Made by a program: the position numbers and the translations under genes. The notes beneath the pieces were generated by a model that was not told where the DNA came from, searched no databases, and was given only the letters and a program-made list of their open reading frames with translations. A stretch of 40,991 nucleotides of DNA from NCBI GenBank assembly GCA_964490655.1, contig CAZBDB010000001.1, positions 1 to 40,991 of the forward strand, given 5' to 3'. Every line of letters begins with the position of its first letter. Positions within the stretch are counted from its first letter, which is position 1. This document shows, piece by piece, positions 6,130-37,891 of the stretch. Source of the DNA: an uncultured Candidatus Bathyarchaeia archaeon (GTDB taxonomy: Archaea; Thermoproteota; Bathyarchaeia; Bathyarchaeales; WAQA01).

Positions 6130-8016
6130 CTAACTCTTGCGGCGTTTCGATATGTACATCTTATAAGACACTACAACTGCTATGACTGCAACCACTGCGA
6201 CTCCTGCAATTATGTCTATCATCTGACTTGGAGCAGCTTCGGACAGGATCAACGTAACGTATACATGGCCTTCCAGATCAACAGAGGTTTGATTTGCCCT
6301 AGATATGTGAATATTCAGATCCGGCACATCGTAGTTATACGAGACCTTAACCTCGGCCGACCCCTCAGGTAATCCCGAAAACTCGTAGACCCCAAGTTTG
6401 TTGCCATACCCTTTGAAAACTTCGCCCCCAACTGAAACCTCCGCGTCTGCATCAGGCACAACCGAACCATTAGGCCAATAGACCCTTAAGGTCAAAGCAG
6501 GTTCTGATACAGGCTTCAAAAGAATCTGTGCAAGTCCCCCACAGAGCCCTTCTACTTCGTAGCGACTCTGGAAGCCGGACGCAGTCACCAAGACTTGGTA
6601 GAAGCCGCTTCTCAACTCTGATACGCGATAGTCACCGCCTGAATCGGTTACACCAGATTCCCTCAGTGCGCTTGTAGCGTTGTATAGCTCGACTAATGCG
6701 TCTCTCACCGGGACCCCCGTTTCATCATTGTAGACATGAAAGACTACATCCTCCTGCAGAAGGGGCGACCGCATCTGTTCCGCGAATGAAGCCATGCCTT
6801 CCTCGTTGAAGCCTGAGTAGGCATAGACCCAGAGCCCTCCTCTCCAGAATTCTCCAGATTTCAGCTCTAGCGGAAACCTTATCAAACCAGCATTTATCCC
6901 CATGTTTATTCTTCCACCCCAACTGTGGAATCCTCCGCTAAACCACCAGTCCATGCCTTCACTTGAGCCGAACATGTAGGACGCAAGCATGCCCACAGAT
7001 ACACCTCTGTCACCCCACATGACCACCCAATCAGCTGGAACCTGAGGGCCATCTTCGACGGCTGCATACAAGTAATTTGGGGGACCTCGTTCAAGAATCA
7101 CTTCCATATAAGCCGATATGTTCTCCTGGATCTGATACAGCCCTTGTGTTGTTTTGCGACCGCAAGTGTCATAAGCTCCAATGAACGGCATACCGACCGC
7201 AGCAAGGCGTAGATAGTCGACCCCCCTCCCCGACGCAGATGCACTTGTAGCTCTTATGACAGTCACTTCCTGCTCTACAAAGAGCCTCAAATCCTCAGAG
7301 CTGTAATATACGTAGACGTCTGCTGTATTCGTTACATTTCGAGATGAGTATTGGAACCTGAAAACAGAGATCAGTGCGCCTATTAGTATCGGCTCCGGAG
7401 GCTCTACAAGCTTGTTTGACCGTATCTCACTATACATGCCGACCCAAGGATTGTCATAAACCAGCGGTAGGTTGAGTGTGCCTACAGGCGTTCCGTACAG
7501 GAAGAGATCTGCCGTCCCGTCGGGATTTACCTCAACAAAGCCGTATCCAACTGTCAGCTGCCACACGCCTCCCTTCTTCGTGACAAGAATGCCCGCGTAT
7601 TCAGGTTTCTCTGCTTGTGTATTTCCATAGTATATTATGTACTCTCTCCTTGAGTTTGGTTCCTGTTGAGCCAAAAAGGCGACATTGGCTTCGACACACC
7701 ATCCCTCACTATAGACCTCTTCTAAGACCTGGCTTGTCACCTCTTGACCAGATTCATCGGTCACTCTTATCTCCTTAGTAGCGTTCACACATTCGCCTGG
7801 AGCAAAGTCCATCTTGACGGTGACGACCTCATTCGCTCTTTCCAATCCACGGTCTTCACTCAGAACCACTTTCTTACTATACTTCCACGCACTCCACTCA
7901 TCATCCGCAGATTCGGAGAATTGTGTCATAGAAGGAGTTAAAAGAATTGTCAGAAGTACAAACAGAACGACTTTGGACAAAATGGACGAAAGCTTCGACA
8001 TGTTTAGCAATGTCAT
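6130..8016 (-). CDS. Surface-anchored protein: signal peptide, DUF2341-like N-terminal beta-sandwich, unknown central domain, two CarboxypepD_reg-like domains, C-terminal TM plus basic tail
   Basis: 628-aa ORF. The N-terminal domain pattern is W.WKYSKKVVLSE...VVTVKMDF...EIRVTDESGQEVTSQV...REYIIYYGN. Two prealbumin-like modules are present (VFHVYNDETGVPVRDALVEL...GDYRVSELRSGFYQVLVTASGF and LRVYWPNGSVVPDADAEVSV...). The C-terminus is IIAGVAVVAVIAVVVSYKMYISKRRKS. The TATA-like box at 8024..8037 sits too close to the ATG at 8016, so Met6 (ATG at 8001, MSKLSSIL...) is the more likely, leaderless, start. Confidence 0.8.
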   Translation of the reverse strand: MTLLNMSKLSSILSKVVLFVLLTILLTPSMTQFSESADDEWSAWKYSKKVVLSEDRGLERANEVVTVKMDFAPGECVNATKEIRVTDESGQEVTSQVLEEVYSEGWCVEANVAFLAQQEPNSRREYIIYYGNTQAEKPEYAGILVTKKGGVWQLTVGYGFVEVNPDGTADLFLYGTPVGTLNLPLVYDNPWVGMYSEIRSNKLVEPPEPILIGALISVFRFQYSSRNVTNTADVYVYYSSEDLRLFVEQEVTVIRATSASASGRGVDYLRLAAVGMPFIGAYDTCGRKTTQGLYQIQENISAYMEVILERGPPNYLYAAVEDGPQVPADWVVMWGDRGVSVGMLASYMFGSSEGMDWWFSGGFHSWGGRINMGINAGLIRFPLELKSGEFWRGGLWVYAYSGFNEEGMASFAEQMRSPLLQEDVVFHVYNDETGVPVRDALVELYNATSALRESGVTDSGGDYRVSELRSGFYQVLVTASGFQSRYEVEGLCGGLAQILLKPVSEPALTLRVYWPNGSVVPDADAEVSVGGEVFKGYGNKLGVYEFSGLPEGSAEVKVSYNYDVPDLNIHISRANQTSVDLEGHVYVTLILSEAAPSQMIDIIAGVAVVAVIAVVVSYKMYISKRRKS

Positions 8017-8099: not shown

Positions 8100-10262
8100 C
8101 TATACTCCCCTAAGGATCCTAGCTTTCTTCCGAAGCAGATCCAGCTTGATACTTGTGTAGCCCTCGACCTCTTCAGATCGCAACTTCGCTTCGGACTCAA
8201 GATCGACGAATTCGTATGACCCCCGTATTCTGATCTCGCTGCTCACATCTTCTTTATTATGGTTGAGCACGATTAACGCCTTCACTCCGTTGTGTTCCAA
8301 CAGCCCAGTTTCGATATTACTCCAGAGACTTGGAGTAACGCCTTTGACCTCGACGGGACTCTCAACGCCACCAGCGTGGAGGAGAGATCTGACGAACTCC
8401 CTCCAATCCCCTTCTTTGAGCAGAAAGGATTGGAACATCAATGTGCCGACGAGGACTGCTCTTCCTTTGCCGAAGCTGTTCTCGACGATCGCAGGCTCCC
8501 CGTTGGGAAACTCTGCGATGACCCTTGATTCTTCCTCTGACCTGAGAATCTCGCGGAAGGCATGCAAGGGCAGCTCCGCACCAGCGGACGGATACTTCCT
8601 CTTGAACTCCTCGGTCAATCTCAGACATTCGCCTTCTTCAGGGGTCTCTATGTCATAGGAGTAGCCTCCGAAGGCTTCGTTGAGACCGAACCCGGGTGAA
8701 GTAAGGTGAACAGCTCCGTATTCGTTCTTCATGGCGCATCCGAAGTCGGCTATGAGGCAACCGCCATTCCGCACGAAGTCTATGATGGCCTTTGCTGCTC
8801 CCGCGTCCAGCATATAGGTGAACGGCATAAGCAGAACCTTGTAACCTTTTAGCCTGCCAGCTGCGATCGAGGGTGGATTGATGAAGTCACAAGGGATCTT
8901 TGACTCCCATAGCATCTTGTAGGCGCCGAGCTGAGACTGTGCATAGTATCTCCTCTCGCCCCTGTAGGGATGAAAGATAGTCTCATCGGGTATCTCAGAG
9001 CCGGCGGCATTCTTACATGTTTGAGACTGAAGGATCGCGACCTCGGCCTTCGGACGGGCTTTGAGGAAGAGCTCCATATTGCGATTTACGATCCTGCTGG
9101 CCCTCCCAGCTGCCTCAGCTCTCGGTCTTAGGCTTCCATCCTTGGCTACTAGCCCGAATTCGTTGTTCTCCCAGCCTGAACCCACATTGCCTATCCTTGG
9201 CCTCCAGAGCCAATAGATCTGTCCCTTCCCTCCTCTGGCAACTGTCTGCCAGGCCCAGAGCTCTATCTGCTCGGGAGACGGGGTAACCGACCTTGAGTGA
9301 GCCCAGATTGTTGGGCCCCCTTGGAGCTCTGAGACCCAAGCGTCCTTGCCTGCCGCTGAAGCGGCTGAACGCACACTGTCCACGATCTGAGAATAGCACC
9401 ATGGAAAGTCTCCGCCGCCTTGAGTCCATAGATATATAGAGACTCCCAGAGTGTCAGCTGCTCTGTCAGCCATCTTCCATGGATCAGCACCGACAGCCGG
9501 TTGGTTGTACAGGATCTGATGGAAGAGGAGATTTGTATGGGTTGGATGGTTTGGGTCTCCCTTCCTTAACGAGTCGGAGACGAACTTCACCCGTTCGGTC
9601 AGGTTGTCATCGCAAAAATCTCTCCAGTCCAGCCAAGGCTTGTAGGTCCCCCAAGATCTCAAAGGACGGTTGGGCGGAAGCACCTGCATGAAGTCTTTGA
9701 AGTTCCTGTTCCAGGCGTTGTTCAGACCTTCCAGGCTGCCGTATCTGACTTCCAACCATTTCCTGAACTTGTCCACAGAGTATTCACAGTAGCATGCGAT
9801 ATTGCTGTAGGTTATGTGAGGCTCATTCCAAGAGACCCAACAGAACAGCCCTGGATGGTCTTTGAAGCGGGACGCTAGCGCTGTCAGGAACTCAGCAGCG
9901 CCGCGGCGTACGTTCGGGTTGTCAAAGCACGGCTGGAATTGAGGATATGGTTTGCCGATCTTCGTGTTAACGCCGATCACGCCTTCACCGATCTCTTCCT
10001 TGGTGATGTCAGGCGGGGGTCCAACACCGACCGTCAGAGCACATTTTATCCCGACCTCTGCCGCGATATCCAAAACTTCGTCAACATCGAAAAAGTTGTA
10101 GACGCCTGCTTCCCGCTCGATGTGGCTTCTAGGAACGAAGCCTCTGAAGACCGTGAATCCGAGATCCCTCATCTTCTCCAAATCTTCTCTTGCGCATTCT
10201 TTGGGCGGAAAGTCGCCGCCAACTATGTATGTAGCCCCAAAAGGGAAGATCTCCTTACTCAT
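8100..10262 (-). CDS. GH42 family beta-galactosidase, cytoplasmic
   Basis: 720-aa ORF with the GH42 layout. The TIM barrel has the acid/base region CWVSWNEPH, the Cys-containing segment IACYCEYSVDKFRKWLEVRYGSLEGLNNAWN, and the nucleophile region AWVSELQGGPTIW. This is followed by a GH42M-type (GATase1-like) domain AEVAILQS...YKVLLMPFTYMLDAGAAKAIIDFVRNGGCLIADFG and a C-terminal beta domain. No signal peptide. Confidence 0.85.
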   Translation of the reverse strand: MSKEIFPFGATYIVGGDFPPKECAREDLEKMRDLGFTVFRGFVPRSHIEREAGVYNFFDVDEVLDIAAEVGIKCALTVGVGPPPDITKEEIGEGVIGVNTKIGKPYPQFQPCFDNPNVRRGAAEFLTALASRFKDHPGLFCWVSWNEPHITYSNIACYCEYSVDKFRKWLEVRYGSLEGLNNAWNRNFKDFMQVLPPNRPLRSWGTYKPWLDWRDFCDDNLTERVKFVSDSLRKGDPNHPTHTNLLFHQILYNQPAVGADPWKMADRAADTLGVSIYLWTQGGGDFPWCYSQIVDSVRSAASAAGKDAWVSELQGGPTIWAHSRSVTPSPEQIELWAWQTVARGGKGQIYWLWRPRIGNVGSGWENNEFGLVAKDGSLRPRAEAAGRASRIVNRNMELFLKARPKAEVAILQSQTCKNAAGSEIPDETIFHPYRGERRYYAQSQLGAYKMLWESKIPCDFINPPSIAAGRLKGYKVLLMPFTYMLDAGAAKAIIDFVRNGGCLIADFGCAMKNEYGAVHLTSPGFGLNEAFGGYSYDIETPEEGECLRLTEEFKRKYPSAGAELPLHAFREILRSEEESRVIAEFPNGEPAIVENSFGKGRAVLVGTLMFQSFLLKEGDWREFVRSLLHAGGVESPVEVKGVTPSLWSNIETGLLEHNGVKALIVLNHNKEDVSSEIRIRGSYEFVDLESEAKLRSEEVEGYTSIKLDLLRKKARILRGV

Positions 10263-10420: not shown

Positions 10421-11596
10421 CTATGGTCCCTGCTTTCTTCTTCGCATCTTTAGAACTATCACCAAGACAATGATGACTATGATTGGCACAGCGGCCAGTG
10501 ATAGGTCTCTCATCATTGCTGCTGATCGCTCAGCATCTTCTGCCTGTCTCAACAAGTTGGAAGCTTCATCTAAGTCATCCCTGCCGCCAACCACATCGCC
10601 CCCTATGATCTTGCCGTAGGCAGATTCAGCGGCGGCCAGCGCTTGGGACGCCAGACTCTTAGCGCCTGCGTCTGTGAAGGATTCAACTGCTTCTGCGGAG
10701 CTGCCTTCAGTCCTTCCCAAATCAGCCAACAGGTTTACCATGTCTAGAGATGACTGGTAGCCTCCCGCACCGTGAATGTACAATGCAACTTCGGCTTTCT
10801 TCACCTCATCTCTTGTCATTGCTCCTTCGCCATAGTCCGCTTGCTTCAACTCAGCGCTGAAGACTGTACCATTCTCCCTTTGGTCCCATATGACATAGGA
10901 TACATACAAGTTCGGATCTAGGTTGACAACGGTGATCCCTTCCATCGGTTTGCTGAAGTCCATCCAGAAGGTTGTCTGACTCGTCTCAAACCGTCCAGCC
11001 GCGCCTTCAACGAACTCGGCCGGGAGATCTACCTCCTGCACAGCTGATCCCTCGACGCTGACATAGGCTTTGCCGCCAGCGAATACGTTGCCGGGGAACC
11101 CCCACAAGCCCCACGCGATCATCGTCACAGTAGGTGCATCTTCATCCGCTGTCAAGGTTGAGGAAACGAAGATGACTCCAGTTCTGGTTATGGTCAAATC
11201 TGTCTTAATTGACAATGGGTACGTGAGATACTCGCTGAAACATGTCAAAGTAACATAATCATCCATATCCTGAATGATGGGCTCACCGGTCGCATCGCTC
11301 CCCGTGGCTTGGGGGCCATCCTCCTCCCATACACACCAACCTGCTGCGGTGGCGTATGTCATGTGTGCTATTCTTATCTCGCTGATTCCGCCGTTCTCAA
11401 GGATGACGGCCCTGAAGATCTCCATACCAGTTGGGTCTGTAAGGAAGACATGTATCTCATCGTCTATAACCTCAATGGAGAGATCGTCTGGCTCTTCTTC
11501 AGCATACGAGGAATGCAAGAGACAACATGCGCCAATGATAGATAAAGCCAAATAGAGAGAGATTACGTATCTCAGAAATGTATGGTGTGCATTCAC
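10421..11596 (-). CDS. Family C surface protein: signal peptide, beta-rich ectodomain, Ala/Asp/Glu-rich helical stalk, C-terminal TM plus RRRK tail; function unknown
   Basis: 391-aa ORF. It has an N-terminal leader (VISLYLALSIIGACCLL), the conserved strings SSTLTADEDAP, IAWGLWGFPGNVFAGGKAYVSVEG, FWMDFSKPMEGITVVNLDP and VALYIHGAGGY, and the C-terminus AAVPIIVIIVLVIVLKMRRRKQGP. Paralogues are at 11752..12939 and 36668..37858. Confidence 0.85.
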   Translation of the reverse strand: MNAHHTFLRYVISLYLALSIIGACCLLHSSYAEEEPDDLSIEVIDDEIHVFLTDPTGMEIFRAVILENGGISEIRIAHMTYATAAGWCVWEEDGPQATGSDATGEPIIQDMDDYVTLTCFSEYLTYPLSIKTDLTITRTGVIFVSSTLTADEDAPTVTMIAWGLWGFPGNVFAGGKAYVSVEGSAVQEVDLPAEFVEGAAGRFETSQTTFWMDFSKPMEGITVVNLDPNLYVSYVIWDQRENGTVFSAELKQADYGEGAMTRDEVKKAEVALYIHGAGGYQSSLDMVNLLADLGRTEGSSAEAVESFTDAGAKSLASQALAAAESAYGKIIGGDVVGGRDDLDEASNLLRQAEDAERSAAMMRDLSLAAVPIIVIIVLVIVLKMRRRKQGP

Positions 11597-11751
11597 ACGG
11601 ATCCCTTGTGGCTGAATGCCGCTAGAGAAATCTTCTTTTGACTAGTTAAGCCTTTCCTAGCAGAAACTATCATGTTCTCCGCGGTATGGAGTGGATCTAT
11701 TCTCGATGAAATCTGCTAATTGAGGATGAACGGAAACACGAAGGCAACTGC

Positions 11752-12939
11752 TCACTTTCTTCTTCGGATCTTCAGAATCACGACTAGGATTACTATAGCT
11801 ATGATGGGGACAGTGGCCAATGCCAAATCTCGCATGATGGCTCCTGTCCTCTCCGCGTCTTCTGCTCTTTTCAGCAAGTCAGAGGCTTGATCCAAGTCAT
11901 CGCTGGCGCTGGCCACATCTCCTATTACGATTTTGTCAAATCCCGACTTAGCGTTGTCAAAAGCCCGAAGAGCCAGGGCTCTAGCTCCGGCGTCATTGTA
12001 CGATTCCAATCCCCTTCTGGCGCCGCTCATAGCAGAACCTAGGTCAACCAACAGGTTTATCATGCTTAGAGCACTCTCGTAACCTCCCGCGCCGTGGATG
12101 TACAATGCAACATGTGAAGTCTTCACTTCACTTTCCCTCATAGCATTGAAACCAGGACCCCCACGGTTCATGTGTTGATAAAGAGCAAGGAAGCCCTGAT
12201 AACTCCCCCATCTCTGATCGCTTATAGAATAATGAAGAAACACACTCGGATCTAAGTTGACCAAGGTTATTCCTTCTGATGGCTTGCTGAAATCCATCCA
12301 ATAGACTGGCCTTTCAGATATTGCAAAAAGCCCAGTCATGTTCTGCTCAGGAGTACCTTGGCGTTGAGCTGGGAGATTCACGGCCTGCACGTTTCCCTCT
12401 AGGTTGACATAGGCCTTGCTACCAGCGAAGATGCTGGCTGGAAACAGAAACCCCCATGAAGTAATGTCAAGTGCGGGCTCATCTTCTTCCGCCGTCATAC
12501 TTGAGGATATCAAGATGACTCCAGTCTTGGATATTGTTATGTTCGTGACAAAGGATAGTGAGTGAACACGGTACTTGCTGAAAAGCGTCAAAGTAACATA
12601 TTCACCCATGTCTCTGATTAAGGGTTCGCCCACAGGATCACTTCCCCAAGTCTGGTTTGAGTCGTTGCTCACAATCCAGCCCCCCGCATCTTCAGCATAA
12701 GAGATCTGCGAAACTATTATCTCTCTGATTCCCCCAGTCTTGAGAATGACAAGTCTGAAGACCTCCGCACCCCATACATCCGTCCTAACAACTTGTAACT
12801 TCTCATCAACAAACTCGACCATAAGGCTACCTTCCTTCTCTTGACAATGTGACAACTTCAACACGCCGCAAGAACTGATGACAAGGAACGCTAGACAGAT
12901 AAGAATCACAGATCTCAAAAGCCCGTGATGCGTAGTCAT
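11752..12939 (-). CDS. Family C surface protein (tandem paralogue of 10421..11596)
   Basis: 395-aa ORF with the same architecture and motifs (YWMDFSKPSEGITLVNLDP, VALYIHGAGGY, ...VPIIAIVILVVILKIRRRK). It has its own TATA-like box at 12981..12994. Confidence 0.85.
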   Translation of the reverse strand: MTTHHGLLRSVILICLAFLVISSCGVLKLSHCQEKEGSLMVEFVDEKLQVVRTDVWGAEVFRLVILKTGGIREIIVSQISYAEDAGGWIVSNDSNQTWGSDPVGEPLIRDMGEYVTLTLFSKYRVHSLSFVTNITISKTGVILISSSMTAEEDEPALDITSWGFLFPASIFAGSKAYVNLEGNVQAVNLPAQRQGTPEQNMTGLFAISERPVYWMDFSKPSEGITLVNLDPSVFLHYSISDQRWGSYQGFLALYQHMNRGGPGFNAMRESEVKTSHVALYIHGAGGYESALSMINLLVDLGSAMSGARRGLESYNDAGARALALRAFDNAKSGFDKIVIGDVASASDDLDQASDLLKRAEDAERTGAIMRDLALATVPIIAIVILVVILKIRRRK

Positions 12940-12980: not shown

Positions 12981-12994
12981 TCATTTAAGCTTTC
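12981..12994 (-). promoter_or_regulatory. BRE/TATA-like box (sense GAAAGCTTAAATGA) for family C gene 11752..12939
   Basis: It shares the AAAGCTTAAA core with 8024..8037. Related versions precede 11596 (AAAGGCTTAAC), 10262 (AAACCTTAAAG) and 26416 (CAGCTTAAAT). Confidence 0.4.
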
Positions 12995-13100
12995 CTCCTA
13001 GGGAAAGCTCCTAGTCTCACTTTATGAGTTGAATAATCGCGGCGGCTATTCAATGATTTCTGCCAACGCATAGCTAGTTGCTAGGTAGCACCTTTACCTC

Positions 13101-13162: not shown

Positions 13163-15217
13163 ATGGGAAAGGATTACTTCAGTGACCCAATAGTGGGAGC
13201 ATATTTCCACATATTGGCAGGACTGAAGGGTAACGAACAGATTGACACCTACTTGAGAGCTATCAAAGACGCTAAGGCGCGCAGCATATGGCTTTTTGTG
13301 GGCAATGTGGATAAGGAGAAGCTCAGCTATTTTCTGGATCAAGCCTACGAAATGGGTATCAAAGTGGTGCCTGTCTTTCAGCCAAACATATCTATCGAGG
13401 AGCATCCCGAGGTCAAAATAGTCTGCTCCGACGGTTCCACATCCGATGACCCTCGCTACGCCAACATAGGATGCTTCAACCATCTTTACCTACTAGAAAA
13501 GGCCAAAGAGATGATTGGCGACTTCCTGGGACGTTACAAGAATCATCCGGTGCTCTACAAGATTGGTGGATTGCCACTTCTCAGCTTTATTCATGAGGCT
13601 TACTACCGAACAGATGTGCCTGAGTTCGGGGGCGGACCACTCAAGCCTTGCTGCTACTGCAAATACTGTGTGGAAGACTTCAGAGCAACAATGAAGAACA
13701 AACATGGGAATATCAAGAAGTTCAACTCCAAGCATAAGACAAGTTTTGCCAGCTGGGAAGAGCTCGAGCCGCCTAGAGAACCTGACAACGCCTCATTCTG
13801 GAAAGAATGGTTCGATTACCATGCGGAGATCATTCCCAACTTTCTTAGAAAGCTGATTGAGTACGCCAAGAGCATAACTCCGATCGCCTCTACTCATGAA
13901 CTGAACGATTTCTATCCCTGCACCTACCAGTGCGTATACTCTGGCAATGACTTGTGGCGGATGGCCAGCGTTCTGGATGTAGGTCACGAAGACATGTACC
14001 CCCTGGAATTCGACCACCGCTACGTCATCTACGTGTACGAATACCCAAAAGACATACTCAGGACGGCCATGGGCTTCGACAAACTGTACACAGGCAACGG
14101 CCAAAGCTTCAACTCTTGGCTAGGCTACAAGGTGCCGCCTGAAAGCATGTCAGAACAAGTCTACTCAACCCTCGCTCACGGAGCGCTGGGCCTCGTGTGG
14201 TGGGTAGACTGGAACAACCTAGATCTATGGTCCAAGACAACTCAACCCAACGAAGAATACGGCAAACTCGTCAAAGCCCTCAGAGACTATGAACTCTCAA
14301 GGGCACAAGTAGCACTTATTTATCCTTGGACGAGCATGGAACTCAAAACCGACGACACGTTCAACATGGACAATGTCCTATTCTATATGGCTCTAGTGAG
14401 GAGCGGATTCCCAGTAGACATTATATCAGAAGACCAGATAGCAGAAGGGCTGCTAGAGAGGCAAGGATACAAAATCGTCTGCGCCATTGGATGCCCAACA
14501 CTTCCCCCTGAAGTCACTGCTAAGATCAAAGATTTCGTCAAGAAAGGCGGCGCCGTAATTGCCGACTACGAAGGAGAAGGCGTAGAGGAATTCAAGTCGG
14601 CATACCCAGAATCGGTGGAACAACCCTCAGCTGACCATACAATATACACTATCGAAACTGATCTCCCGTCATTAAAAGAATTGAAAGGCATAATCATACC
14701 AGTGGGCAATAGATGCGAGAAATTGAGAGCAATTCAGAATGCAGAGGTTATAGCTAAGTTTGAAAATGGAGAACCCGCAATCATCAGAATCACAGATGGA
14801 AGAGGATCAGTCATCAAGGTTGGAAGCCTTCTAGGCTGGGACTATTCTAACTATCCGGGACACTACGATTTTGCGGTTATGTACCCATTCCTTATTCGAA
14901 GGAACGAAACGGTCAGAGAACTGATCTCAAGGCTGCTAAAGGAAGCTGGCGTCCAACCCCCTGCAGAATCGAGCAACCCAGACGTTGAGGTCGGAGTCTG
15001 GAAAGGGGAGAACGAACGATTAATCTTAGTTGTCAACCACCTCGATCAACCTTCAGAGACTACAGTCAGCGTAAACCTAGAGCAACCGGGGAAGTACAAG
15101 GTCCGAGAGTTCATCACTGGTGAAGTCACGGAGTCGAAAGTGCAGCACAGTAAGATCCTTTTCAACATAAGCATAACGAACTTCCGAGGAAAAGCCTTTG
15201 TTATAGAAAGAGCCTAA
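13163..15217 (+). CDS. Divergent GH42-like protein (TIM barrel plus GATase1-like middle domain); catalytic motifs not canonical
   Basis: 684-aa ORF preceded by the SD-like GAGGAGTGAG. It is collinear with the GH42 gene at 8100..10262. IHEAYY...PCCYCKYCVEDFRATM..KHGNIKKFN matches the position of WNEPH...CYCEYSVDKFRKWL..YGSLEGLN. QVALIYPWTS...YKIVCAIGCPTLPPEVTAKIKDFVKKGGAVIADYEG matches the middle domain. All four Cys of the GH42 Zn cluster appear present (IGCFNH plus CCYCKYC). Confidence 0.6.
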   Translation: MGKDYFSDPIVGAYFHILAGLKGNEQIDTYLRAIKDAKARSIWLFVGNVDKEKLSYFLDQAYEMGIKVVPVFQPNISIEEHPEVKIVCSDGSTSDDPRYANIGCFNHLYLLEKAKEMIGDFLGRYKNHPVLYKIGGLPLLSFIHEAYYRTDVPEFGGGPLKPCCYCKYCVEDFRATMKNKHGNIKKFNSKHKTSFASWEELEPPREPDNASFWKEWFDYHAEIIPNFLRKLIEYAKSITPIASTHELNDFYPCTYQCVYSGNDLWRMASVLDVGHEDMYPLEFDHRYVIYVYEYPKDILRTAMGFDKLYTGNGQSFNSWLGYKVPPESMSEQVYSTLAHGALGLVWWVDWNNLDLWSKTTQPNEEYGKLVKALRDYELSRAQVALIYPWTSMELKTDDTFNMDNVLFYMALVRSGFPVDIISEDQIAEGLLERQGYKIVCAIGCPTLPPEVTAKIKDFVKKGGAVIADYEGEGVEEFKSAYPESVEQPSADHTIYTIETDLPSLKELKGIIIPVGNRCEKLRAIQNAEVIAKFENGEPAIIRITDGRGSVIKVGSLLGWDYSNYPGHYDFAVMYPFLIRRNETVRELISRLLKEAGVQPPAESSNPDVEVGVWKGENERLILVVNHLDQPSETTVSVNLEQPGKYKVREFITGEVTESKVQHSKILFNISITNFRGKAFVIERA

Positions 15218-15222
15218 GTCAT

Positions 15223-16302
15223 ATGGTGGAAAGGGTCATGTCTGAGAGCGTTTCCTTCGGTCCCTGGCGCGGCTTCAACCTATTGGAGAAGTTCACTGTC
15301 CGGAGGAACTCACCATTCTTGGAGCTTGACTTTCAGCGAATGGCTGAGTGGGGCTTCGATTTCGTACGGCTTCCCATGGACTACAGATGCTGGATCATCG
15401 ATGGAGATTTCTACAGGATAAACGAGAAAGTACTTAAAGAGATAGATCAGGCTGTTGAGTTTGGAAGGAAGTATAGGATACATACAGACATCAACTTTCA
15501 CCGAGCTCCAGGCTTTTGTGTGAACCCTCCATTGGAGCCGTTGAGCTTATGGAGTGACAGAGAGGCATTAGACGCGTGCGAGTACCATTGGAGGCTTTTC
15601 GCTGAACGTTACAAAGGTATCCCTAGCGAAGAGGTTAGCTTCAACTTGGTGAACGAGCCACGCGGAACCAACATGCAGACGTACAAGCGCTTCGTTGACA
15701 GAATGCTACATGCAATTAGGGAGATAGATCCCTATCGGCTGGTGATAGCTGACGGTTTGACGGGGAACTATGAACCCGTGCCTGGAATCGATGATCCGTT
15801 GCTTGGGCAAAGTTTTCACGTATATCAGCCAGGGTGGCTTACTCATCTAGGCGCTAGCTGGACTTATGTATGGTTCAATTATGATGAACAACCTGAGTAT
15901 CCCGGAGTGGCACCGAACATCGACAAGTACCTAGAAAAGCTGCCACTTGACTCTCCCCATCGAGGAGCTTACCTGAGGTACAAGGGTGTGGGAATCGACA
16001 AGGATTGGCTAGAGCAGTGGATGAAACCCTACATAGACCTAAAGGAGAAAGATGGGGTATTCGTTCACTGTGGTGAGCTCGGAGTCTATTCGAAGAAGGT
16101 TCCACGGCGATCTCAACTCAACTGGTATCGGGATGTTCTAGAGATTCTCAGTCAACACAAGATTGGATGGGCCCAATGGAACCTGAGAGGACCCTTCAGC
16201 ATAATGAATACAGGCCGAGAAGAATTCCACAGCGAAACGTTGCCAGACGGAGACCGCTTGGACAGAGAATTGCTCAGACTCATTCAAAGCTATCTAAAAT
16301 GA
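15223..16302 (+). CDS. GH5 family glycoside hydrolase (cellulase/mannanase-type), cytoplasmic
   Basis: 359-aa ORF starting 6 nt after the previous stop, so probably the same operon. GH5 hallmarks are WGFDFVRLPMDY, the acid/base motif SFNLVNEPRG and the nucleophile motif FVHCGELGV. No signal peptide. Confidence 0.8.
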   Translation: MVERVMSESVSFGPWRGFNLLEKFTVRRNSPFLELDFQRMAEWGFDFVRLPMDYRCWIIDGDFYRINEKVLKEIDQAVEFGRKYRIHTDINFHRAPGFCVNPPLEPLSLWSDREALDACEYHWRLFAERYKGIPSEEVSFNLVNEPRGTNMQTYKRFVDRMLHAIREIDPYRLVIADGLTGNYEPVPGIDDPLLGQSFHVYQPGWLTHLGASWTYVWFNYDEQPEYPGVAPNIDKYLEKLPLDSPHRGAYLRYKGVGIDKDWLEQWMKPYIDLKEKDGVFVHCGELGVYSKKVPRRSQLNWYRDVLEILSQHKIGWAQWNLRGPFSIMNTGREEFHSETLPDGDRLDRELLRLIQSYLK

Positions 16303-24418: not shown

Positions 24419-26416
24419 CTAGAACGGGAAGAAGAATCTATAGATTCCGAGTGCGCCGCTAAGGAATAGTGCTAGGTTCCATCCTACTGCGAAGCCGACT
24501 GCGAGGGGTATGCCCTTCTTTTGGAATAGGGATACTCCTCCTATTCTGAGCGTTAACTTCTTCAGTACATAGGCGATAGTCCAGCTGGTCAGAATGAAGG
24601 TGCTTGTGCCTGCGACGCCCATCCAGACTCCTATAGGTTCTAATGGGAACCAGTACCATAGCGTTCTGCAAACGTATACGGCGGCTATGACTAATGCTCC
24701 TCCTACGGCACTTGCGACCCAAGCTGGATCGCTCGACGGATAGTTCTGCATAGATATTGGGTTTCCTAAGAAGCCCATCCACCAGCCTTCGTGAGTCAGT
24801 GGTCTCTGAAGTTGTGCGCCGAACATGTGTCGCACCTGCAATGCAACCGGGAAGGATACAACTATAGCGATTACCATCGCGACGGTTGTAGCAAGCATAA
24901 TGTCCCGGTAACTTGTTTTCGTAGCTTTAGCCAACCTGTATAGGAGGAGTTGCTGGCTATTGTTGTTCCAGTTCATTACGTTCTGAGGTCTGCTAATCAT
25001 CACGTAATCATTTACAACACCTGCTGGCATAGTTTCCTCTGTAAGGCCAGTGTATGCAAAGTTGATGTAGCCTGGACAGTGAGGCCAGTCACCAATGCCG
25101 GGACCACCATAACCGGCACTCCTAGAGTTGGCACCTCTTTGTACGAAGTTTACTACGATCACCATGACGGCGCCGAAGACTGTAGTTTGAGCTAAGCCGA
25201 TGTTGGAGGCCAGCAACAAGATCATAGTTACGAAGAATATTATGTAGCTCCACCTGAACGGGAGGGGCTCCTCTGCATCAACTCTTGCATCAGGACTCTT
25301 AGCCCACCCCAAGGTCTTAGCCATGTAACGCCAGTTCATAACTAGCCACATCATTATGACCGCTACAGGCATGCCGTAGGCTCCCATTGCATAGAAGTAA
25401 AACGGCGGCGACTGCCCGATTAGATCCCTCTTAGCATTGAACCATGTTATGGTGAACACTGTCTGATAATATCCCATGTAGTAGGCTATCTGAGGCAGTA
25501 TAATCATGAATATGACGTTTGATATCACACCAGATAGTAGCACATCTACAGGTACCAGATAGGCAAGGGCTATCGCTGAAGGATTGAACTGTAGCCCGTC
25601 TAACCCTACCAGCGTATCTTTGAGCGGAGTTCTAGTTGTATCTATTGTTGCAAGTGCCCAAGGTATGTATGGATCTCTGCTGAAGCCGTATATATCTGGG
25701 AACCATGCGAAAACGTTTCTCAGAGCTTGTGGCAGGAAGAAGAGGAAGCCGATGATCCCGGTTACTAGGAATAGCCTCCTTTCAGTTCTCCTCTTGCCCG
25801 CTGCACCCAGGTTCTGAACCATCTCCATTGATGGGTAGGCCCCTGGGAACGGCAGAGCCTCTACGTCAAGCCATTGACGTCGGAAGATGTTGACCATGCT
25901 CGTCATGAAGAGCCACCACAGGATTGCTAGGAGTATCCAACCTCCCATGGCTGTTGAATACTCGCCCCAAGGAACGGGGACTCCACCGGTTAGTTGTACC
26001 TGTTGAACTTCTAGAGATGGCCCCCACAGCGGAGAGAAGGCCCACATGAATGTTGGGGCCCACAGCTTTGAAGTTAGCATGTTGTCTATGGTGCTCATTG
26101 GCATCCATCCGTAGGAGAAGGCGACGGTGATTGTGAAGACAGCCCAGAGAACGGTCAAGCGTTGAGCGTTGATAGCCTTGAGGCTTGGCAGCACCTCAGC
26201 CAATAGCAGGAATATGGCGAACATTATCATGCCTATGTTGGCCGGTGTGAAAGTGTTTCCCCACTGCATCCACTGCGGAGTGAAGGCAGTTATGGTTATG
26301 CTGAAAGCCGACAGTAGAACTGCAGTTACGACTATCACAGCCCACATAGCAGGCGTCAGCACAGAAGGCGCTACTTCTACAGTGGTTTCCTCTGAGGGTA
26401 TTTCTGTTTCAGACAT
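24419..26416 (-). CDS. 665-aa polytopic membrane protein, distant OPT-superfamily-like putative transporter
   Basis: The ORF is hydrophobic throughout (more than 12 predicted TM by eye). The motif NIFRRQWLDVEALPFPGAYP resembles the OPT/YSL signature as I recall it (..L.FPSGTATA..). It has a glycine-rich terminal helix pair (GIPLAVGFAVGWNLALFLSGALGI). It has the same length as, and a topology similar by eye to, 29863..31860. Its own TATA-like boxes and an oligo-T terminator flank it. Confidence 0.55.
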   Translation of the reverse strand: MSETEIPSEETTVEVAPSVLTPAMWAVIVVTAVLLSAFSITITAFTPQWMQWGNTFTPANIGMIMFAIFLLLAEVLPSLKAINAQRLTVLWAVFTITVAFSYGWMPMSTIDNMLTSKLWAPTFMWAFSPLWGPSLEVQQVQLTGGVPVPWGEYSTAMGGWILLAILWWLFMTSMVNIFRRQWLDVEALPFPGAYPSMEMVQNLGAAGKRRTERRLFLVTGIIGFLFFLPQALRNVFAWFPDIYGFSRDPYIPWALATIDTTRTPLKDTLVGLDGLQFNPSAIALAYLVPVDVLLSGVISNVIFMIILPQIAYYMGYYQTVFTITWFNAKRDLIGQSPPFYFYAMGAYGMPVAVIMMWLVMNWRYMAKTLGWAKSPDARVDAEEPLPFRWSYIIFFVTMILLLASNIGLAQTTVFGAVMVIVVNFVQRGANSRSAGYGGPGIGDWPHCPGYINFAYTGLTEETMPAGVVNDYVMISRPQNVMNWNNNSQQLLLYRLAKATKTSYRDIMLATTVAMVIAIVVSFPVALQVRHMFGAQLQRPLTHEGWWMGFLGNPISMQNYPSSDPAWVASAVGGALVIAAVYVCRTLWYWFPLEPIGVWMGVAGTSTFILTSWTIAYVLKKLTLRIGGVSLFQKKGIPLAVGFAVGWNLALFLSGALGIYRFFFPF

Positions 26417-26431
26417 CTTTTCTCCACGATA

Positions 26432-26464
26432 GCTATTTAAGCTGCTAATCTTTATAAGATTTTC
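26432..26464 (-). promoter_or_regulatory. Two adjacent TATA-like boxes for the distal 665-aa membrane protein gene
   Basis: Sense GAAAATCTTATAAA (shared AAATCTTA core, about 39 nt upstream of the ATG at 26416) and GCTTAAATAGC (about 20 nt upstream). Together with the 394-nt gap, this suggests the gene can be transcribed independently of the upstream three-gene operon. Confidence 0.4.
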
Positions 26465-26810
26465 CTTAAATGCCCGAAATACATATCAATCACACGCGCT
26501 CTTGAGGCACGCGCTTGAAAGAAGCCGTAGTTAGCGCGCACACTCATAGAGCGTGGGCCAAGGTGATGCGAAGTTTCCTTCATACCTCTCAGAGAGCTCC
26601 TTCTTTGACCTCGACGCTGGGATTTCTCAAAGACAGAGAGATAGAAGGGGGTATCGAATTTGACAGTAGAAATCGTTCACAAATTGATGGTTCAAGAGAG
26701 ACCGTAACTCCCATCTAGCTCACGCCAAAGCGGAAGAGAGGAGCTCTTGGCCGAGACTCTACGTAGTGGAGCAGAATAGACGGCGAACTCCCAAGATGGC
26801 GAGAAGCTGC

Positions 26811-29800
26811 TTACAACGCTCCTCTTCTGAAGGATTGCATAATCTTATCTTTTCTTTTGACCCAGTCTAGTGACTTGTTGTAGATTATCTTCATGACTCT
26901 CTCTCTTATGAGCTCTGGCATTCCTTCCTGTTCGACAGTTGATGAAATATATACACGGTAGAAGTCATCCTTAGGTTTCTGCTCAATAATGAGTGTGTTC
27001 GATGTGGAGAACCATTGTTGTCTGTGATGGAAGATGTACCTGAATTGTATAGAGATGATGTTGGAGCCGTCAGGCATCTGCATCTCCTCTGGTTTCTTAA
27101 CGTCTTCCACCCTTTCGGTAAAACCTCCAGCTAATTCCTTCATCTGATCATAAAGGAAACTGCTTAGAATCAAGGCTTCATTAGTTTGGACCCTTATGGG
27201 CATAGATACTCTTCTCTCACCGAAACCTTTGTATATCTCTTCATATCTCAAGCGTTCCTCTTCTGGGGAACGCTTTATTCTTCTCAATACTGAAGGCGCT
27301 GCCAGTCTTGCAGCCTTCAAAGCTGGGGGGATTGCGGAGATTGTAGTTATGAGCATGCCTACAAGAACCCCTACAATGCTCATCCACCATTGCAGATTCT
27401 CTCTTACACCGACGCTTATGAACTCTGAGATAATCTTCATCAACCTGAAAACGGTCAATCCGGTAAGGTATCCCAACCCTCCACCCATAAGCCCCATGGT
27501 AGCAGACTCAGCTATGAACACAAGAGCTATATGCAACGGGTTGAACCCAACAGTCGTATAAACGAATATCTCTCTGCGTCTCCTCTCCACAGCGCCATAC
27601 ATTACCGCGGTTATAGACATCATCACTATAGCCAAAGGCAAAAGGATATCATAGTATCTTATCTCTATTCTCGTACCCAAGAAGTAGCGGAGCATTTGAC
27701 CGGCTGAGCTGACCCATACATCGAAACCTCTAGCCCAAGCCTGTATCTGAACGAACTTGGTTATTCCGTCTGTATCGCTTGGATCTTTGAATTCAACGAT
27801 CATTCTGGAGATTGATATAGGCATGTTATAAGGTTTAGAGGCTAACTTCAAAGCTTTATCAAAGCTCATGAGGATCACCTGAGAAGCGTTGCATGGCACT
27901 ATATCCTCACCTATCAAGGTTGTCGGCGCGTAGAAATCTCCGTTAAGATCGCTTTTCGTGTCAAATTCACCATCGTCAAAGAAGCCGGCTACTCTTATAG
28001 GTAATTCGAATGAAAGGCCTCCAGATGAAATGCCTAAAGAGATATTAGAGCCTACAGGTAACCCTAGTTTCTGGGCAGCATTCAGAGAAACCATAAGTGA
28101 TTCATCATCTTGGATGTAGCTTCCCTCAGCAACATTTACGTTAACATACTTTCTCTCTATGTCAGGCAACACCCCTATAATTCCTAACATCACCACAGTC
28201 CTTCCATCTTTCTTGAGCTCTATTGAGTATTGACCCGGCAAACTGGGTGGCAGAGTCTCCGCTTTGGGTGTTACGAGCTGGATATCTGGTTCCTGTTCAA
28301 TAGAGAACAGAGTTACGGGGTCAATAGGTATGAACGTGTTTGTCTTTTCACCTGGATTTTTCATTAGGGCCCATTCGCCGGCGGAGGGGCCTACAACCTC
28401 TGACTCTAGACCAAAAATGGATGTGACTGATGTCAAGGTTGTGACCGCAGAGATCAAAGCGCACAAGGAGATTATAACCAAAGACGACCTTAATCTTCTG
28501 AGCTTAACGTATCTCTTTCCGAGCATAAAGGTCACAGCCAAAACAGACCTAAAACCAATCTCCACCGGGTTTCCAGCCTCGAAAACTATCCTCGGTAGGA
28601 CAAAGATCACTAGTAAGCTTACAATTACGGAGCCCAGAATAGCCGCGAAGAACAAGTCCGAGTAGAGAGAGAGGATGAGAGCCACTCCAGGGTAGAGGAA
28701 GTAGAAAGACGCTATCACGATCGCGAATATAACCATGAAGGACAGGAAGCGGAATTTGATTTGCTCCTTTTCGAAGAAAAAGAATGCTAGGGCGATGGAA
28801 AATATCGCTAGGAAGAATGGTAACATTTGGGCGCCTTCTGCAGCCGTGTTTCTCATCTCTTTTAGCTCGTTGATTATGAACCCGGTAGCGAAAATGTAGG
28901 CCCTTCTTAAGGGCATCTGAACCCCTTCATCCGAAAAGTCTCCTCTCTCTATGGAGGAGCTTGCAAACTCGATTTGAGCGTCGACCTCATTCAGAGCTGT
29001 GTCCTTCAAAGCTGCGAGGAAGAAGCCTAGCCTCTCAGCCTCGCGTATGTTTGCCCACATGAACTCAGATGCCTTTTGAATCGCCGATAACGACCATCTA
29101 TAAGCGAATGGCGTGATATCTACAGACAAGAGAGAACCTTCTGGGAGGTTGAAAGACTCACTCCCGTTTTGGACTACAAACACTTGATCCGCAGCACCAG
29201 GTTGAGACGCAATCAGCCCAATCTCTACGTGTTTGTTCGCTGGTATTATGACTACGATCCAAGGGCGAGAGAAGAGAAAAGGACTCATCCACCTAGAGTT
29301 CACAAATATCGATGTGATGTTGTCACCATAGAAAGGAGTATAGTCTCCCACTCCGGGATCAACAGCGGAAGTCAAAATGTAACCTGAAGCTGGATCTAGA
29401 ACCTGGGCTTTAAGGGATAACGCGTATCTACCAGAGAAGACATTCCACGATTCCCCTGTCAGGTTTAGCATGGCTCCTGGCACGAGCCTAAGATCCGGGA
29501 TGGATGTGACTTCTCCAATGAGGGGAAGGAATTCCTTCTCAAAAGTTGATGGCGCTAGAACTCTGGACCCATTTGCTAGGTAGGCGTAGATTCTGTACGA
29601 GTGGGGATGCCCACCTCTCACTTCCGCTTCGTAGCGTCCAGTGGAGTCTGTCTTTAGTGGTGGAAAGGCCCTCTGGAAGTACCAGTCTATTACTACCACG
29701 GTTGCATTTGGGACGGGATTTCCGTCGAGATCAGTTACTCTGCCCTTTAGGATGGCTGTCTCTTCACCAACTTGAGCATCGGTTCGACAGGTTCCTATTA

Positions 29801-29846
29801 GAAGGCTTAGTAAGAAGCATAAGGCGACTACTGTAGAGAGCTTCAT
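26811..29846 (-). CDS. FtsX/MacB-type permease fusion: signal peptide, CarboxypepD_reg-like ectodomain, 4 extra TM, MacB-like TM1-loop-TM2-4 core, and a novel C-terminal cytoplasmic domain of about 165 aa
   Basis: 1011-aa ORF. The N-terminus is MKLSTVVALCFLLSLLIGT..ILKGRVTDLDGNPVPNATVVV..TDSTGRYEAEV. The cytoplasmic basic stretch GKRYVKLRRLRSSLVIISLCALISAV is followed by a loop of about 250 aa. The canonical FtsX block is AVERRRREIFVYTTVGFNPLHIALVFIAESATMGLMGGGLGYLTG...AIPPALKAARLAAPSVL. It starts 16 nt after the upstream gene, with a GGTGA SD-like element. Confidence 0.75.
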   Translation of the reverse strand: MKLSTVVALCFLLSLLIGTCRTDAQVGEETAILKGRVTDLDGNPVPNATVVVIDWYFQRAFPPLKTDSTGRYEAEVRGGHPHSYRIYAYLANGSRVLAPSTFEKEFLPLIGEVTSIPDLRLVPGAMLNLTGESWNVFSGRYALSLKAQVLDPASGYILTSAVDPGVGDYTPFYGDNITSIFVNSRWMSPFLFSRPWIVVIIPANKHVEIGLIASQPGAADQVFVVQNGSESFNLPEGSLLSVDITPFAYRWSLSAIQKASEFMWANIREAERLGFFLAALKDTALNEVDAQIEFASSSIERGDFSDEGVQMPLRRAYIFATGFIINELKEMRNTAAEGAQMLPFFLAIFSIALAFFFFEKEQIKFRFLSFMVIFAIVIASFYFLYPGVALILSLYSDLFFAAILGSVIVSLLVIFVLPRIVFEAGNPVEIGFRSVLAVTFMLGKRYVKLRRLRSSLVIISLCALISAVTTLTSVTSIFGLESEVVGPSAGEWALMKNPGEKTNTFIPIDPVTLFSIEQEPDIQLVTPKAETLPPSLPGQYSIELKKDGRTVVMLGIIGVLPDIERKYVNVNVAEGSYIQDDESLMVSLNAAQKLGLPVGSNISLGISSGGLSFELPIRVAGFFDDGEFDTKSDLNGDFYAPTTLIGEDIVPCNASQVILMSFDKALKLASKPYNMPISISRMIVEFKDPSDTDGITKFVQIQAWARGFDVWVSSAGQMLRYFLGTRIEIRYYDILLPLAIVMMSITAVMYGAVERRRREIFVYTTVGFNPLHIALVFIAESATMGLMGGGLGYLTGLTVFRLMKIISEFISVGVRENLQWWMSIVGVLVGMLITTISAIPPALKAARLAAPSVLRRIKRSPEEERLRYEEIYKGFGERRVSMPIRVQTNEALILSSFLYDQMKELAGGFTERVEDVKKPEEMQMPDGSNIISIQFRYIFHHRQQWFSTSNTLIIEQKPKDDFYRVYISSTVEQEGMPELIRERVMKIIYNKSLDWVKRKDKIMQSFRRGAL

Positions 29847-29862
29847 CAGGTGCTCACCGGAT

Positions 29863-31860: not shown

Positions 31861-31873
31861 TGGTCTTCACCTA

Positions 31874-36580: not shown

Positions 36581-36598
36581 GTTATATAAGATTTTTGT
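36581..36598 (-). promoter_or_regulatory. BRE/TATA box for the operon of the 1559-aa, 665-aa and 1011-aa genes
   Basis: Sense ACAAAAATCTTATATAAC; the core lies about 34 nt upstream of the ATG at 36553. It is preceded by a T7 terminator for the upstream gene. Confidence 0.5.
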
Positions 36599-37876: not shown

Positions 37877-37891
37877 GAATATATAAGATTT
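37877..37891 (-). promoter_or_regulatory. BRE/TATA box for family C gene 36668..37858
   Basis: Sense AAATCTTATATATTC; the core lies 26 nt upstream of the TTG at 37858, consistent with a leaderless mRNA. Confidence 0.45.

Follow-up and report, generated by a model that had tools for sequence, protein, structure and literature searches.

The 40,991-nucleotide stretch of DNA considered here (the window in the following) is from an uncultured Candidatus Bathyarchaeia archaeon (GenBank assembly GCA_964490655.1, contig CAZBDB010000001.1, positions 1 to 40,991 of the forward strand). It carries three paralogous genes, two in tandem and the third next to a cluster of large membrane protein genes, whose products are collectively referred to as family C (table 1). 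An initial annotation, made from the sequence alone, had described these products as tail-anchored proteins of the cell surface that might capture substrates or act on glycans. Family C proteins are of type I, tethered to the membrane and displayed at the cell surface; the family is small and restricted to Bathyarchaeia/Thermoproteota, and it represents a new sequence family, and a new architecture, on a known fold.

The architecture originally claimed for the three proteins, namely a signal peptide, a β-rich ectodomain, a helical stalk, a transmembrane helix and an RRRK tail, is found in all of them. In a Kyte-Doolittle scan, each open reading frame (ORF) product has a hydrophobic N-terminal segment and a C-terminal transmembrane segment followed by RRRK (in paralog 1, residues 11-29 and 364-382, with the tail RRRKQGP), and paralog 2 is organized as paralog 1. 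Identity to paralog 3 is 45-52% over the full length, with values of 50% and 52% for one copy of the tandem pair and of 52% and 45% for the other, mean column identity in the three-way alignment is 70%, and phmmer aligns about 390 residues to homologs with E < 1e-96, so that paralogy at such a level cannot be due to chance. Three of the four motif blocks initially listed (WGLWGFP..VF.G.KAY..EG, (Y/F)WMDFSKP.EGIT.VNL.P and VALYIHG(A/P)GGY) are present in every copy, but the fourth, SSTLTADED, is exact in only two of the three. The true start of paralog 3 is more likely the TTG at 37846, which gives a protein of 392 aa; the public record P0001 has that length, and a Shine-Dalgarno-like GGGGGG run precedes this codon. 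The positions of the genes also agree with the earlier description: the tandem pair is flanked by two genes of the glycoside hydrolase (GH) family 42 type, and the third copy heads the FtsX/OPT-like cluster, 114 bp upstream of the gene for a 1559-aa M28/FtsX protein.

Table 1. Genes and sequence features of the window (aa, amino acids; HMM, hidden Markov model; BRE, B recognition element).
Feature	Positions	Strand	Basis and remarks
Family C paralog 1	10421-11596	minus	ORF, 391 aa; family HMM E=3.7e-146
Family C paralog 2	11752-12939	minus	ORF, 395 aa; in tandem with paralog 1; family HMM E=7.3e-138
Family C paralog 3	36668-37858	minus	ORF, 396 aa
Paralog 3 ectodomain, predicted galactose-mutarotase-like β-supersandwich	37004-37726	minus	aa 45-285; AlphaFold2 and Foldseek
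Paralog 3 stalk, three predicted antiparallel spectrin-repeat-like helices	36743-36985	minus	aa 292-372; DSSP of the model
Paralog 3 transmembrane helix (aa 373-392), RRRK cytoplasmic tail, stop codon	36668-36742	minus	hydrophobicity scan
TATA-box-like element AAATCTTATATATT upstream of paralog 3	37878-37891	minus	read from the sequence
TATA-box-like element of the M28/FtsX gene, sharing the AAATCTTATATA core with that of paralog 3	36582-36595	minus	read from the sequence
T7 run, 38 nucleotides past the paralog 3 stop codon	36624-36630	minus	possible archaeal terminator
Similar elements ctaggaaaggcttaactag, ctaggaggaaagcttaaatg of the tandem paralogs	11640-11665, 12985-13010	minus	about 50 nucleotides before the start codons; resemble BRE/TATA-type promoters
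GH42 β-galactosidase	8100-10262	minus	720 aa, no signal peptide; downstream of and co-directional with the tandem pair
GH42-like (684 aa, 13163-15217) and GH5 (359 aa) genes	13163-16302	plus	divergent from paralog 2; no signal peptides
GH5-mannanase-like/CBM4_9 protein, 848 aa	21115-23661	minus	no signal peptide
Small multi-pass membrane protein, 194 aa	23788-24372	plus	no Pfam match
DUF6785/DUF6784 multi-pass permease, 665 aa	24419-26416	minus	Pfam
Second giant FtsX fusion, 1011 aa, CarboxypepD_reg-like N-terminus	26811-29846	minus	Pfam
OPT-superfamily-like multi-pass permease, 665 aa	29863-31860	minus	transmembrane map, homologs
Giant M28/FtsX membrane protein, 1559 aa	31874-36553	minus	Pfam, transmembrane map
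Apiosidase-like fragment	40072-40989		no signal peptide
Tail-anchored protein, 475 aa	1518-2945	plus	signal peptide and C-terminal transmembrane segment
Tail-anchored protein, 628 aa (TA628)	6130-8016	minus	signal peptide and C-terminal transmembrane segment
Tail-anchored protein, 461 aa	16625-18010	plus	signal peptide and C-terminal transmembrane segment

The initial statement that the proteins contain no recognisable domain stands for sequence searches (Pfam, NCBIfam and a profile against PDB), but not for the fold, which emerged from AlphaFold2 and Foldseek. With Pfam at E<=1, the three window proteins and ten relatives gave no match except for fused domains and transmembrane or coiled-coil noise; NCBIfam at E<=0.01 returned nothing for the family C copy scanned (36668-37858), and the family profile met only MS2 coat noise among PDB sequences. 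By these searches family C is without membership in any curated family. The AlphaFold2 model of full-length paralog 3, built from a 10-sequence alignment (pLDDT 82.5, pTM 0.77), consists of the signal-peptide helix, an all-β domain (residues 46-283) and helices 292-314, 318-339 and 343-395, the last of which continues unbroken into the transmembrane segment; the model of the ectodomain only, built from a 31-sequence alignment, reaches a pLDDT of 96.3 and a pTM of 0.91. The ectodomain, of about 240 aa, is confidently predicted to be a galactose-mutarotase-like β-supersandwich, the fold class called 'supersandwich' in SCOP and Gal_mutarotase (clan) in Pfam, an assignment that comes from three-dimensional similarity and not from sequence profiles (Pfam, PDB sequences).

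Indeed, when PDB was searched by Foldseek with the ectodomain and whole-chain models (50 matches listed per search), the supersandwich matches had a probability of 1.00 at an identity of only 5-14%. The best match of the ectodomain is the GH2 β-galactosidase of Thermotoga maritima (6sd0; E=1.2e-9, TM-score TMq 0.65), and domain 5 of Escherichia coli LacZ (TMq 0.59-0.65), aldose 1-epimerases (TMq 0.49-0.57) and a GH36 galactosaminidase are also found. The whole-chain model gives the same set and adds GH38 mannosidases, the GH174 fucanase 9k1g, 5mg3_C and a chloroplast NDH subunit. The supersandwich thus found in GH2, GH38 and GH36 enzymes occurs there as an accessory or binding domain.

How far the likeness goes differs among these proteins. 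Domain 5 of the GH2 enzymes (6sd0, LacZ) shares with family C the supersandwich (probability 1.00, TM-score 0.59-0.65), and both are tied to galactoside metabolism, but identity is 5-10%, the root-mean-square deviation is 5-7 Å and there is no Pfam match. Furthermore, domain 5 is one module of a cytoplasmic enzyme of about 1000 aa, in which it is preceded by a catalytic TIM barrel and by sugar-binding and Ig-like domains, whereas in family C the ectodomain stands by itself on a stalk and a transmembrane helix, with no TIM barrel; with a single β domain plus stalk in 391-396 aa and no Glyco_hydro_2 match, it does not belong to the GH2 β-galactosidases. The aldose 1-epimerases (Lactococcus lactis GalM, 1l7k; E. 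coli YphB, 3nre) have the same fold (TM-score 0.49-0.57, probability 1.00), but family C, anchored in the membrane with its β domain outside the cell, is shorter by about 100 residues and does not conserve the catalytic set of these enzymes. The holo-translocon chain 5mg3_C, which we take to be the periplasmic P1 domain of bacterial YidC (E=5.8e-8, TMq 0.39, whole-chain model), is a membrane-tethered supersandwich outside the cytoplasmic membrane as well, and is a case in which such a fold serves a membrane machine without being an enzyme; unlike family C, which is single-pass and stalked, it is inserted between transmembrane helices of a polytopic insertase, and the sequences are not similar.

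The helical region that follows the β domain is modelled by AlphaFold2 as a compact spectrin-like three-helix unit. In P0011, L018 and L019 (P and L numbers designate protein records and loci, respectively) the stalk has five repeats of the unit that comes after its first helix, leading to proteins of 683-684 aa, as expected of a spacer. The stalk residues kept in both subfamilies (see below) are nevertheless G341, D342, E364 and an Ala heptad formed by A346, A353 and A360.

The family is rare. A word-indexed search that covered 5.8 billion proteins led to eight family C clusters, and an exhaustive HMMER scan of 1.84 billion representatives to 32 proteins at E<=1e-3, 18 of them at E<=1e-30; a search with the 10-sequence alignment gave two genome loci and six metagenome loci, and in a scan of one genome per GTDB species just two species carried a member. 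The named sources are a Thermoproteota archaeon, a Candidatus Bathyarchaeia archaeon (the gene being on the same contig) and metagenome-assembled genomes (MAGs) of Thermoprotei archaea, and wherever a taxon is given all members are from Bathyarchaeia/Thermoproteota MAGs. Two subfamilies can be distinguished, one of the window type, 33-57% identical to paralog 3, and a distant one of about 375-388 aa, which is about 20% identical with the architecture unchanged. The tail-anchored proteins of 475, 461 and 628 aa encoded in the window were also considered as kin, but hhalign found only the transmembrane segment and the Arg-Arg tail to be shared, and family C is therefore distinct from them. Literature searches on family C, DUF6785 or the FtsX/permease cluster found nothing, and those on FtsX plus M28 in archaea, on GH plus OPT in Bathyarchaeia and on membrane-anchored galactose-mutarotase-like proteins found no report of family C or of the cluster. 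A review of fucoidanases is silent on the fold of GH174.

Whether the supersandwich may be a binder or an enzyme can be judged from its conserved residues and from the domains fused to it. In an alignment of 30 members, which falls to about 20% identity, the polar residues of the β domain conserved in at least 75% of the sequences are S222, D245, R247 and H283 only, the rest being Gly, Pro or hydrophobic. The catalytic set of GalM, two His, one Asp and one Glu (mutant titles in PDB name H96, H170, D243 and E304), is not conserved: a single His is invariant, and no Glu of the β domain is kept family-wide. Both a mutarotase set and a carboxylate pair are thus unconserved. In the window-type subfamily, E66, D100, E189, D220 and D245 are invariant and E159 and D160 nearly so, and these extra acidic residues make a subfamily-specific activity possible. 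As to fusions, in P0035 a family-C-like domain (library-wide E=1.5e-6) stands between a signal peptide and a GH5 catalytic domain, which is the layout of an accessory module. In P0024, family C is followed by a Pro/Thr linker, Mann_GBD_bact (a mannanase-type, galactose-binding-like carbohydrate-binding module, CBM), a second linker and the transmembrane helix, and a variant with family C, Pro/Thr linker, Mann_GBD_bact and transmembrane helix is present in L022 too.

The gene content of the window gives these surface proteins a setting. All recognisable GHs, i.e. the GH42 pair, GH5, GH101/DUF5696-like, GH5-like/CBM4_9 and apiosidase-like proteins, are devoid of a signal peptide and hence should be cytoplasmic, which implies that oligosaccharides are imported and then broken down in the cytoplasm. 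Among the 21 non-overlapping window ORFs of at least 150 aa there is no ABC ATPase, no classical solute-binding protein and no TonB-dependent transporter, so that, with signal-less GHs, some other import route is needed. The extracytoplasmic proteins of the window are family C, the three unrelated tail-anchored proteins and the ectodomains of the FtsX giants. In this glycan locus of 41 kb, with cytoplasmic GHs and neither ABC transporter nor binding protein, the best candidates for the missing step of capture and import are thus family C and the OPT-like/FtsX cluster.

The cluster at 24419-36553 is built of a pair, a giant FtsX fusion and a 665-aa OPT-like/DUF6785 permease, which has been duplicated internally: an alignment of the two giants covers 650 residues (E=5e-19), the 1011-aa protein being paralogous to the 1559-aa one over the C-terminal two thirds of the latter, and the two permeases are weakly similar. 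Homologs of the permease at 29863-31860 carry PF03169 (OPT), PF20581 or the name 'OPT/YSL family transporter'. The 1559-aa protein has, in this order, a signal/transmembrane segment, an ectodomain of about 820 aa with an M28-like domain, four transmembrane helices, a second predicted ectodomain and the FtsX transmembrane block; this second ectodomain sits between the transmembrane blocks, and orthologs match MacB_PCD there. The M28-like domain (about residues 254-395) aligns to Aeromonas aminopeptidase, the inactive homolog nicalin being matched about equally well, and it has Tyr for the first zinc-ligand His (CAYYDS) and His-Phe for the catalytic Glu-Glu (SGHFQN), so that equivalents of His97 and Glu151/Glu152 of the Aeromonas enzyme are missing. 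From these substitutions and the nicalin match, the domain is probably catalytically dead and rather a non-catalytic scaffold. The giants match the ADOP 'duplicated orphan permease' model TIGR03434 weakly, and share with ADOP proteins, for which no adjacent ATPase is known, the absence of an ATPase next to them.

In other lineages, the association of family C with such clusters recurs. An OPT-like/DUF6785 permease, or an FtsX partner, lies within 10 kb of family C in seven of ten informative lineages. In four other lineages (P0004, L001-3 and L016; P0005, L008-10 and L014; P0006, L011; P0007, L004-6) family C directly adjoins, usually divergently, the gene for a 1533-1556-aa M28/MacB_PCD/FtsX protein, this giant being the commonest immediate neighbour of the family. 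Beyond it, where the contig is long enough, come a permease of 626-654 aa and a DUF6785/DUF6784 permease, with a second FtsX giant between the two in L004-L005; the window has this order at 24419-36553. In one of these MAGs (GCA_038818465, L004 11335-16012) the second M28/FtsX gene is split into ORFs of 306 and 1178 aa, a case of a frameshift, an assembly error or a pseudogene; in a near-identical contig of another MAG (L005 11335-16011) the same gene is intact and encodes 1516 aa. In L022 the far end of the cluster carries a pair of family C genes, of which one is the CBM variant, with a GH3 gene adjoining, and a GH3 gene stands beside the cluster also in L023. A 404-aa gene product heading the cluster of L024 was considered as a remote family C member and discarded, being polytopic and without a match to the family profile at E<=0.01. 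The distant subfamily is represented by the Thermoprotei MAG locus L025, where a DUF6785/6784 permease has a family C paralog on either side; a GHL15 gene and an ABC2-type transporter adjoin, and there is no FtsX giant. At 2490-7793 of L025, the place of the FtsX giants is taken by genes for an ABC ATPase, an ABC2-type membrane protein and a tail-anchored protein of 704 aa, which come after the second family C paralog.

Carbohydrate-related genes of various types are close to family C elsewhere. Three paralogs lie in L015 among genes for an FGGY kinase, a DUF2961 protein (presumably of GH172), an acetyl-xylan esterase and a GFO/IDH/MocA protein; in L019 family C is downstream of a GH35-type fragment, and in L026 a sulfatase gene is near and a GH31 gene is 8 kb off. 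Homologs of the 848-aa protein of the window, which combines a GH5-mannanase-like N-terminus (PDB 8gf3, E=1.6e-4) with a CBM4_9/laminarinase-CBM-like region, are encoded no more than a few kb away from family C and the cluster in another four lineages (L001/L016, L008, L011 and L014). The GH42 linkage, by contrast, was seen in no lineage but that of the window: the one other locus with it is L007, whose gene order matches that of the window and which is from the same or a very close organism.

Transcription signals, as far as they can be read from the DNA, concern paralog 3 and the tandem pair. The TATA-like element AAATCTTATATATT and its counterpart with the shared AAATCTTATATA core suggest separate promoters for paralog 3 and for the M28/FtsX gene, respectively. 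If the T7 run acted as a terminator, paralog 3 would be its own transcription unit, and the separate elements together with this run would fit the divergent arrangement of family C and the giant in other lineages. The elements ctaggaaaggcttaactag and ctaggaggaaagcttaaatg of the tandem paralogs resemble duplicated BRE/TATA-type promoters, so that each tandem copy is probably transcribed alone.

Other observations concern the remaining genes of the window. In L001, L004, L014 and L024 the FtsX/permease cluster ends with homologs of the tail-anchored proteins of 461 and 475 aa. The 628-aa protein TA628 has a faint match (E=0.001) to the family of BT_3233, a protein of a Bacteroides polysaccharide utilisation locus; its candidacy as a paralog of the 665-aa permease was rejected on comparison. 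The gene for the 194-aa membrane protein is convergent with the DUF6785 permease gene in the window, but its homologs follow that gene co-directionally in L022 (E=3e-43) and L023 (E=2e-35), which suggests a local inversion. A GlcNAc 2-epimerase-like gene is also present.

In the light of the predicted fold, of the GH5 and Mann_GBD_bact fusions and of the GH genes near family C in other lineages, a carbohydrate-related role, as envisaged by the initial annotation, is plausible. Indeed, the searches did not end in a known non-carbohydrate family devoid of GH linkage elsewhere, the outcome that would have spoken against such a role, but in a supersandwich with these fusions and neighbours. What we tentatively favour, with a probability of about 0.45, is that family C proteins are tethered, probably non-catalytic glycan or oligosaccharide receptors that serve the adjacent OPT-like/DUF6785 permeases. 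By computation, the supersandwich lies outside the cell after Sec export, on a stalk whose last helix runs into the C-terminal transmembrane helix with its positively charged tail; the supersandwich would bind glycans or oligosaccharides without catalysis, thus capturing substrate above the membrane, and family C would pass it on to the secondary permeases, mostly paired with giant orphan FtsX proteins that bear large ectodomains. The imported oligosaccharides would then be cut by the cytoplasmic GH42, GH5, GH101-like and GH5-CBM enzymes of the locus, and the two to three paralogs per genome, together with the variants carrying a five-fold longer stalk or a mannanase-type CBM, may tune specificity and reach. 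That family C might be, more specifically, the extracytoplasmic receptor of an as yet unrecognised type of binding-protein-dependent secondary oligosaccharide transporter, formed with the OPT-like/DUF6785 permeases and, mostly, the ATPase-less FtsX giants with their large, catalytically degenerate M28-like ectodomains, is a more doubtful proposal.

The receptor reading recalls the SusE/SusF-type surface glycan-binding proteins of polysaccharide utilisation loci and the anchored solute-binding proteins of archaea, to which family C would be analogous in being a tethered, multi-copy capture device beside transporters and GHs. The initial suggestion of SusD/SusE- or solute-binding-protein-like components is, however, reduced to such a functional analogy, as no sequence family of SusD, SusE, SusF or solute-binding proteins was matched and none is among the Foldseek matches listed. 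Furthermore, those systems have a TonB-dependent or ABC partner and a lipid anchor, whereas family C, which differs in fold as well, has an OPT-like/DUF6785 secondary permease and a C-terminal transmembrane helix.

Several points weigh against the receptor reading. The stalk is conserved as much as the β domain, which is unexpected for a pure spacer. The clusters of L023 and L024 have no family C gene within 10 kb, and no permease is found within 10 kb of family C in L015, L019 and L026, so that the partnership is frequent, but not obligate. The supersandwich is also the fold of proteins that are not known to bind sugars, such as 5mg3_C and 9grx_2, the latter presumably being the NDH subunit. 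The layout of P0024 may fit an enzyme with its CBM as well as a multi-module binder. Finally, characterised transporters of the OPT family carry peptides or metal chelates, and this, along with the M28-like domain of the neighbouring giant, means that the cargo could be peptides.

Among the alternatives, the possibility that family C is a surface-anchored glycan-active enzyme (of a new GH, polysaccharide lyase or epimerase family), trimming polysaccharides outside the cell before uptake, would supply the extracellular depolymerase that is otherwise missing from a locus in which all recognisable GHs are cytoplasmic. It can draw on the true active sites that the same fold hosts in the matched aldose 1-epimerases, on the GH174 endo-fucanase 9k1g among the matches, should the aligned part be its catalytic domain, on the classical enzyme-plus-CBM layout of P0024 and on the acidic residues invariant in the close subfamily. 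This idea, also raised by the initial annotation, is nevertheless weakened by the restriction of family-wide polar conservation to Ser222, Asp245, Arg247 and His283, which leaves no second carboxylate or His, and hence neither a mutarotase set nor the two-carboxylate pair of GHs; moreover, in P0035 the domain is the N-terminal accessory of a GH5 catalytic domain, identity to any enzyme is 5-14% and no sequence in PDB or Pfam is matched. We thus consider an enzymatic role unlikely.

The stalk conservation and the gene neighbourhood bear on a different proposal, by which family C would be a non-glycan accessory of the FtsX/OPT-like machine, either a peptide receptor or a scaffold docking to the FtsX ectodomains by its helical bundle, the machine serving peptide uptake or envelope maintenance. 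The M28-like/FtsX giant is the most frequent immediate neighbour, the permeases are OPT-like, the stalk residues common to both subfamilies suggest a specific helix-packing interface, and the fold recurs in 5mg3_C, which as the presumed YidC periplasmic domain is not known to bind sugar. A loose parallel is offered by the coiled-coil partners of FtsEX (EnvC, PcsB, RipC), which are helical-bundle extracytoplasmic proteins encoded beside an FtsX-type permease; unlike these, however, family C is devoid of a LytM or CHAP hydrolase domain, has its own transmembrane anchor and is without FtsE, no FtsE-like ATPase being encoded by the window ORFs, and the distant subfamily (L025) keeps the DUF6785 permease, not an FtsX neighbour. 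Peptidase activity of the giant is doubtful, the equivalents of His97 and Glu151/Glu152 being absent, what is fused to family C is a GH5 domain or a CBM and not a peptidase, the clusters sit among GH genes, and stalks that vary about five-fold in length fit a fixed docking geometry poorly; on balance, such an accessory function seems improbable. Far less probable still is a structural role in the envelope, as an S-layer anchor or stalk analogous to SlaB of Sulfolobales. The domain order does resemble that of SlaB (a signal peptide, β-sandwich domains, a coiled coil and a C-terminal transmembrane helix), the helical region of P0038 weakly matches SbsC_spectrin-like (E=0.057), and bathyarchaeial envelopes are uncharacterised. 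However, two to three divergent paralogs per genome lie inside catabolic loci, with FtsX/permease proteins or GHs as neighbours and no adjacent SlaA-like lattice gene; the fusions to a GH5 domain and a CBM weigh against it; and a family of 32 representatives is rare where an essential envelope protein should occur clade-wide. That no S-layer protein is among the Foldseek matches listed is weak evidence in the same direction.

Bathyarchaeia, which rank with the most abundant of the uncultured archaea, are regarded as degraders of polymers. Should the receptor reading prove false, family C would still be a new and clearly bounded sequence family, its fold predicted with confidence, and fit for inclusion in domain databases. 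If it is true, family C would be a new family of surface glycan receptors and would provide the first functional handle on DUF6785/DUF6784 and on the orphan giant FtsX proteins; if the proposal of a secondary transporter also holds, it would account for the oligosaccharide import route of those Bathyarchaeia loci that have no ABC sugar transporter. The locus would then be an archaeal counterpart of the polysaccharide utilisation locus, made from wholly different parts.

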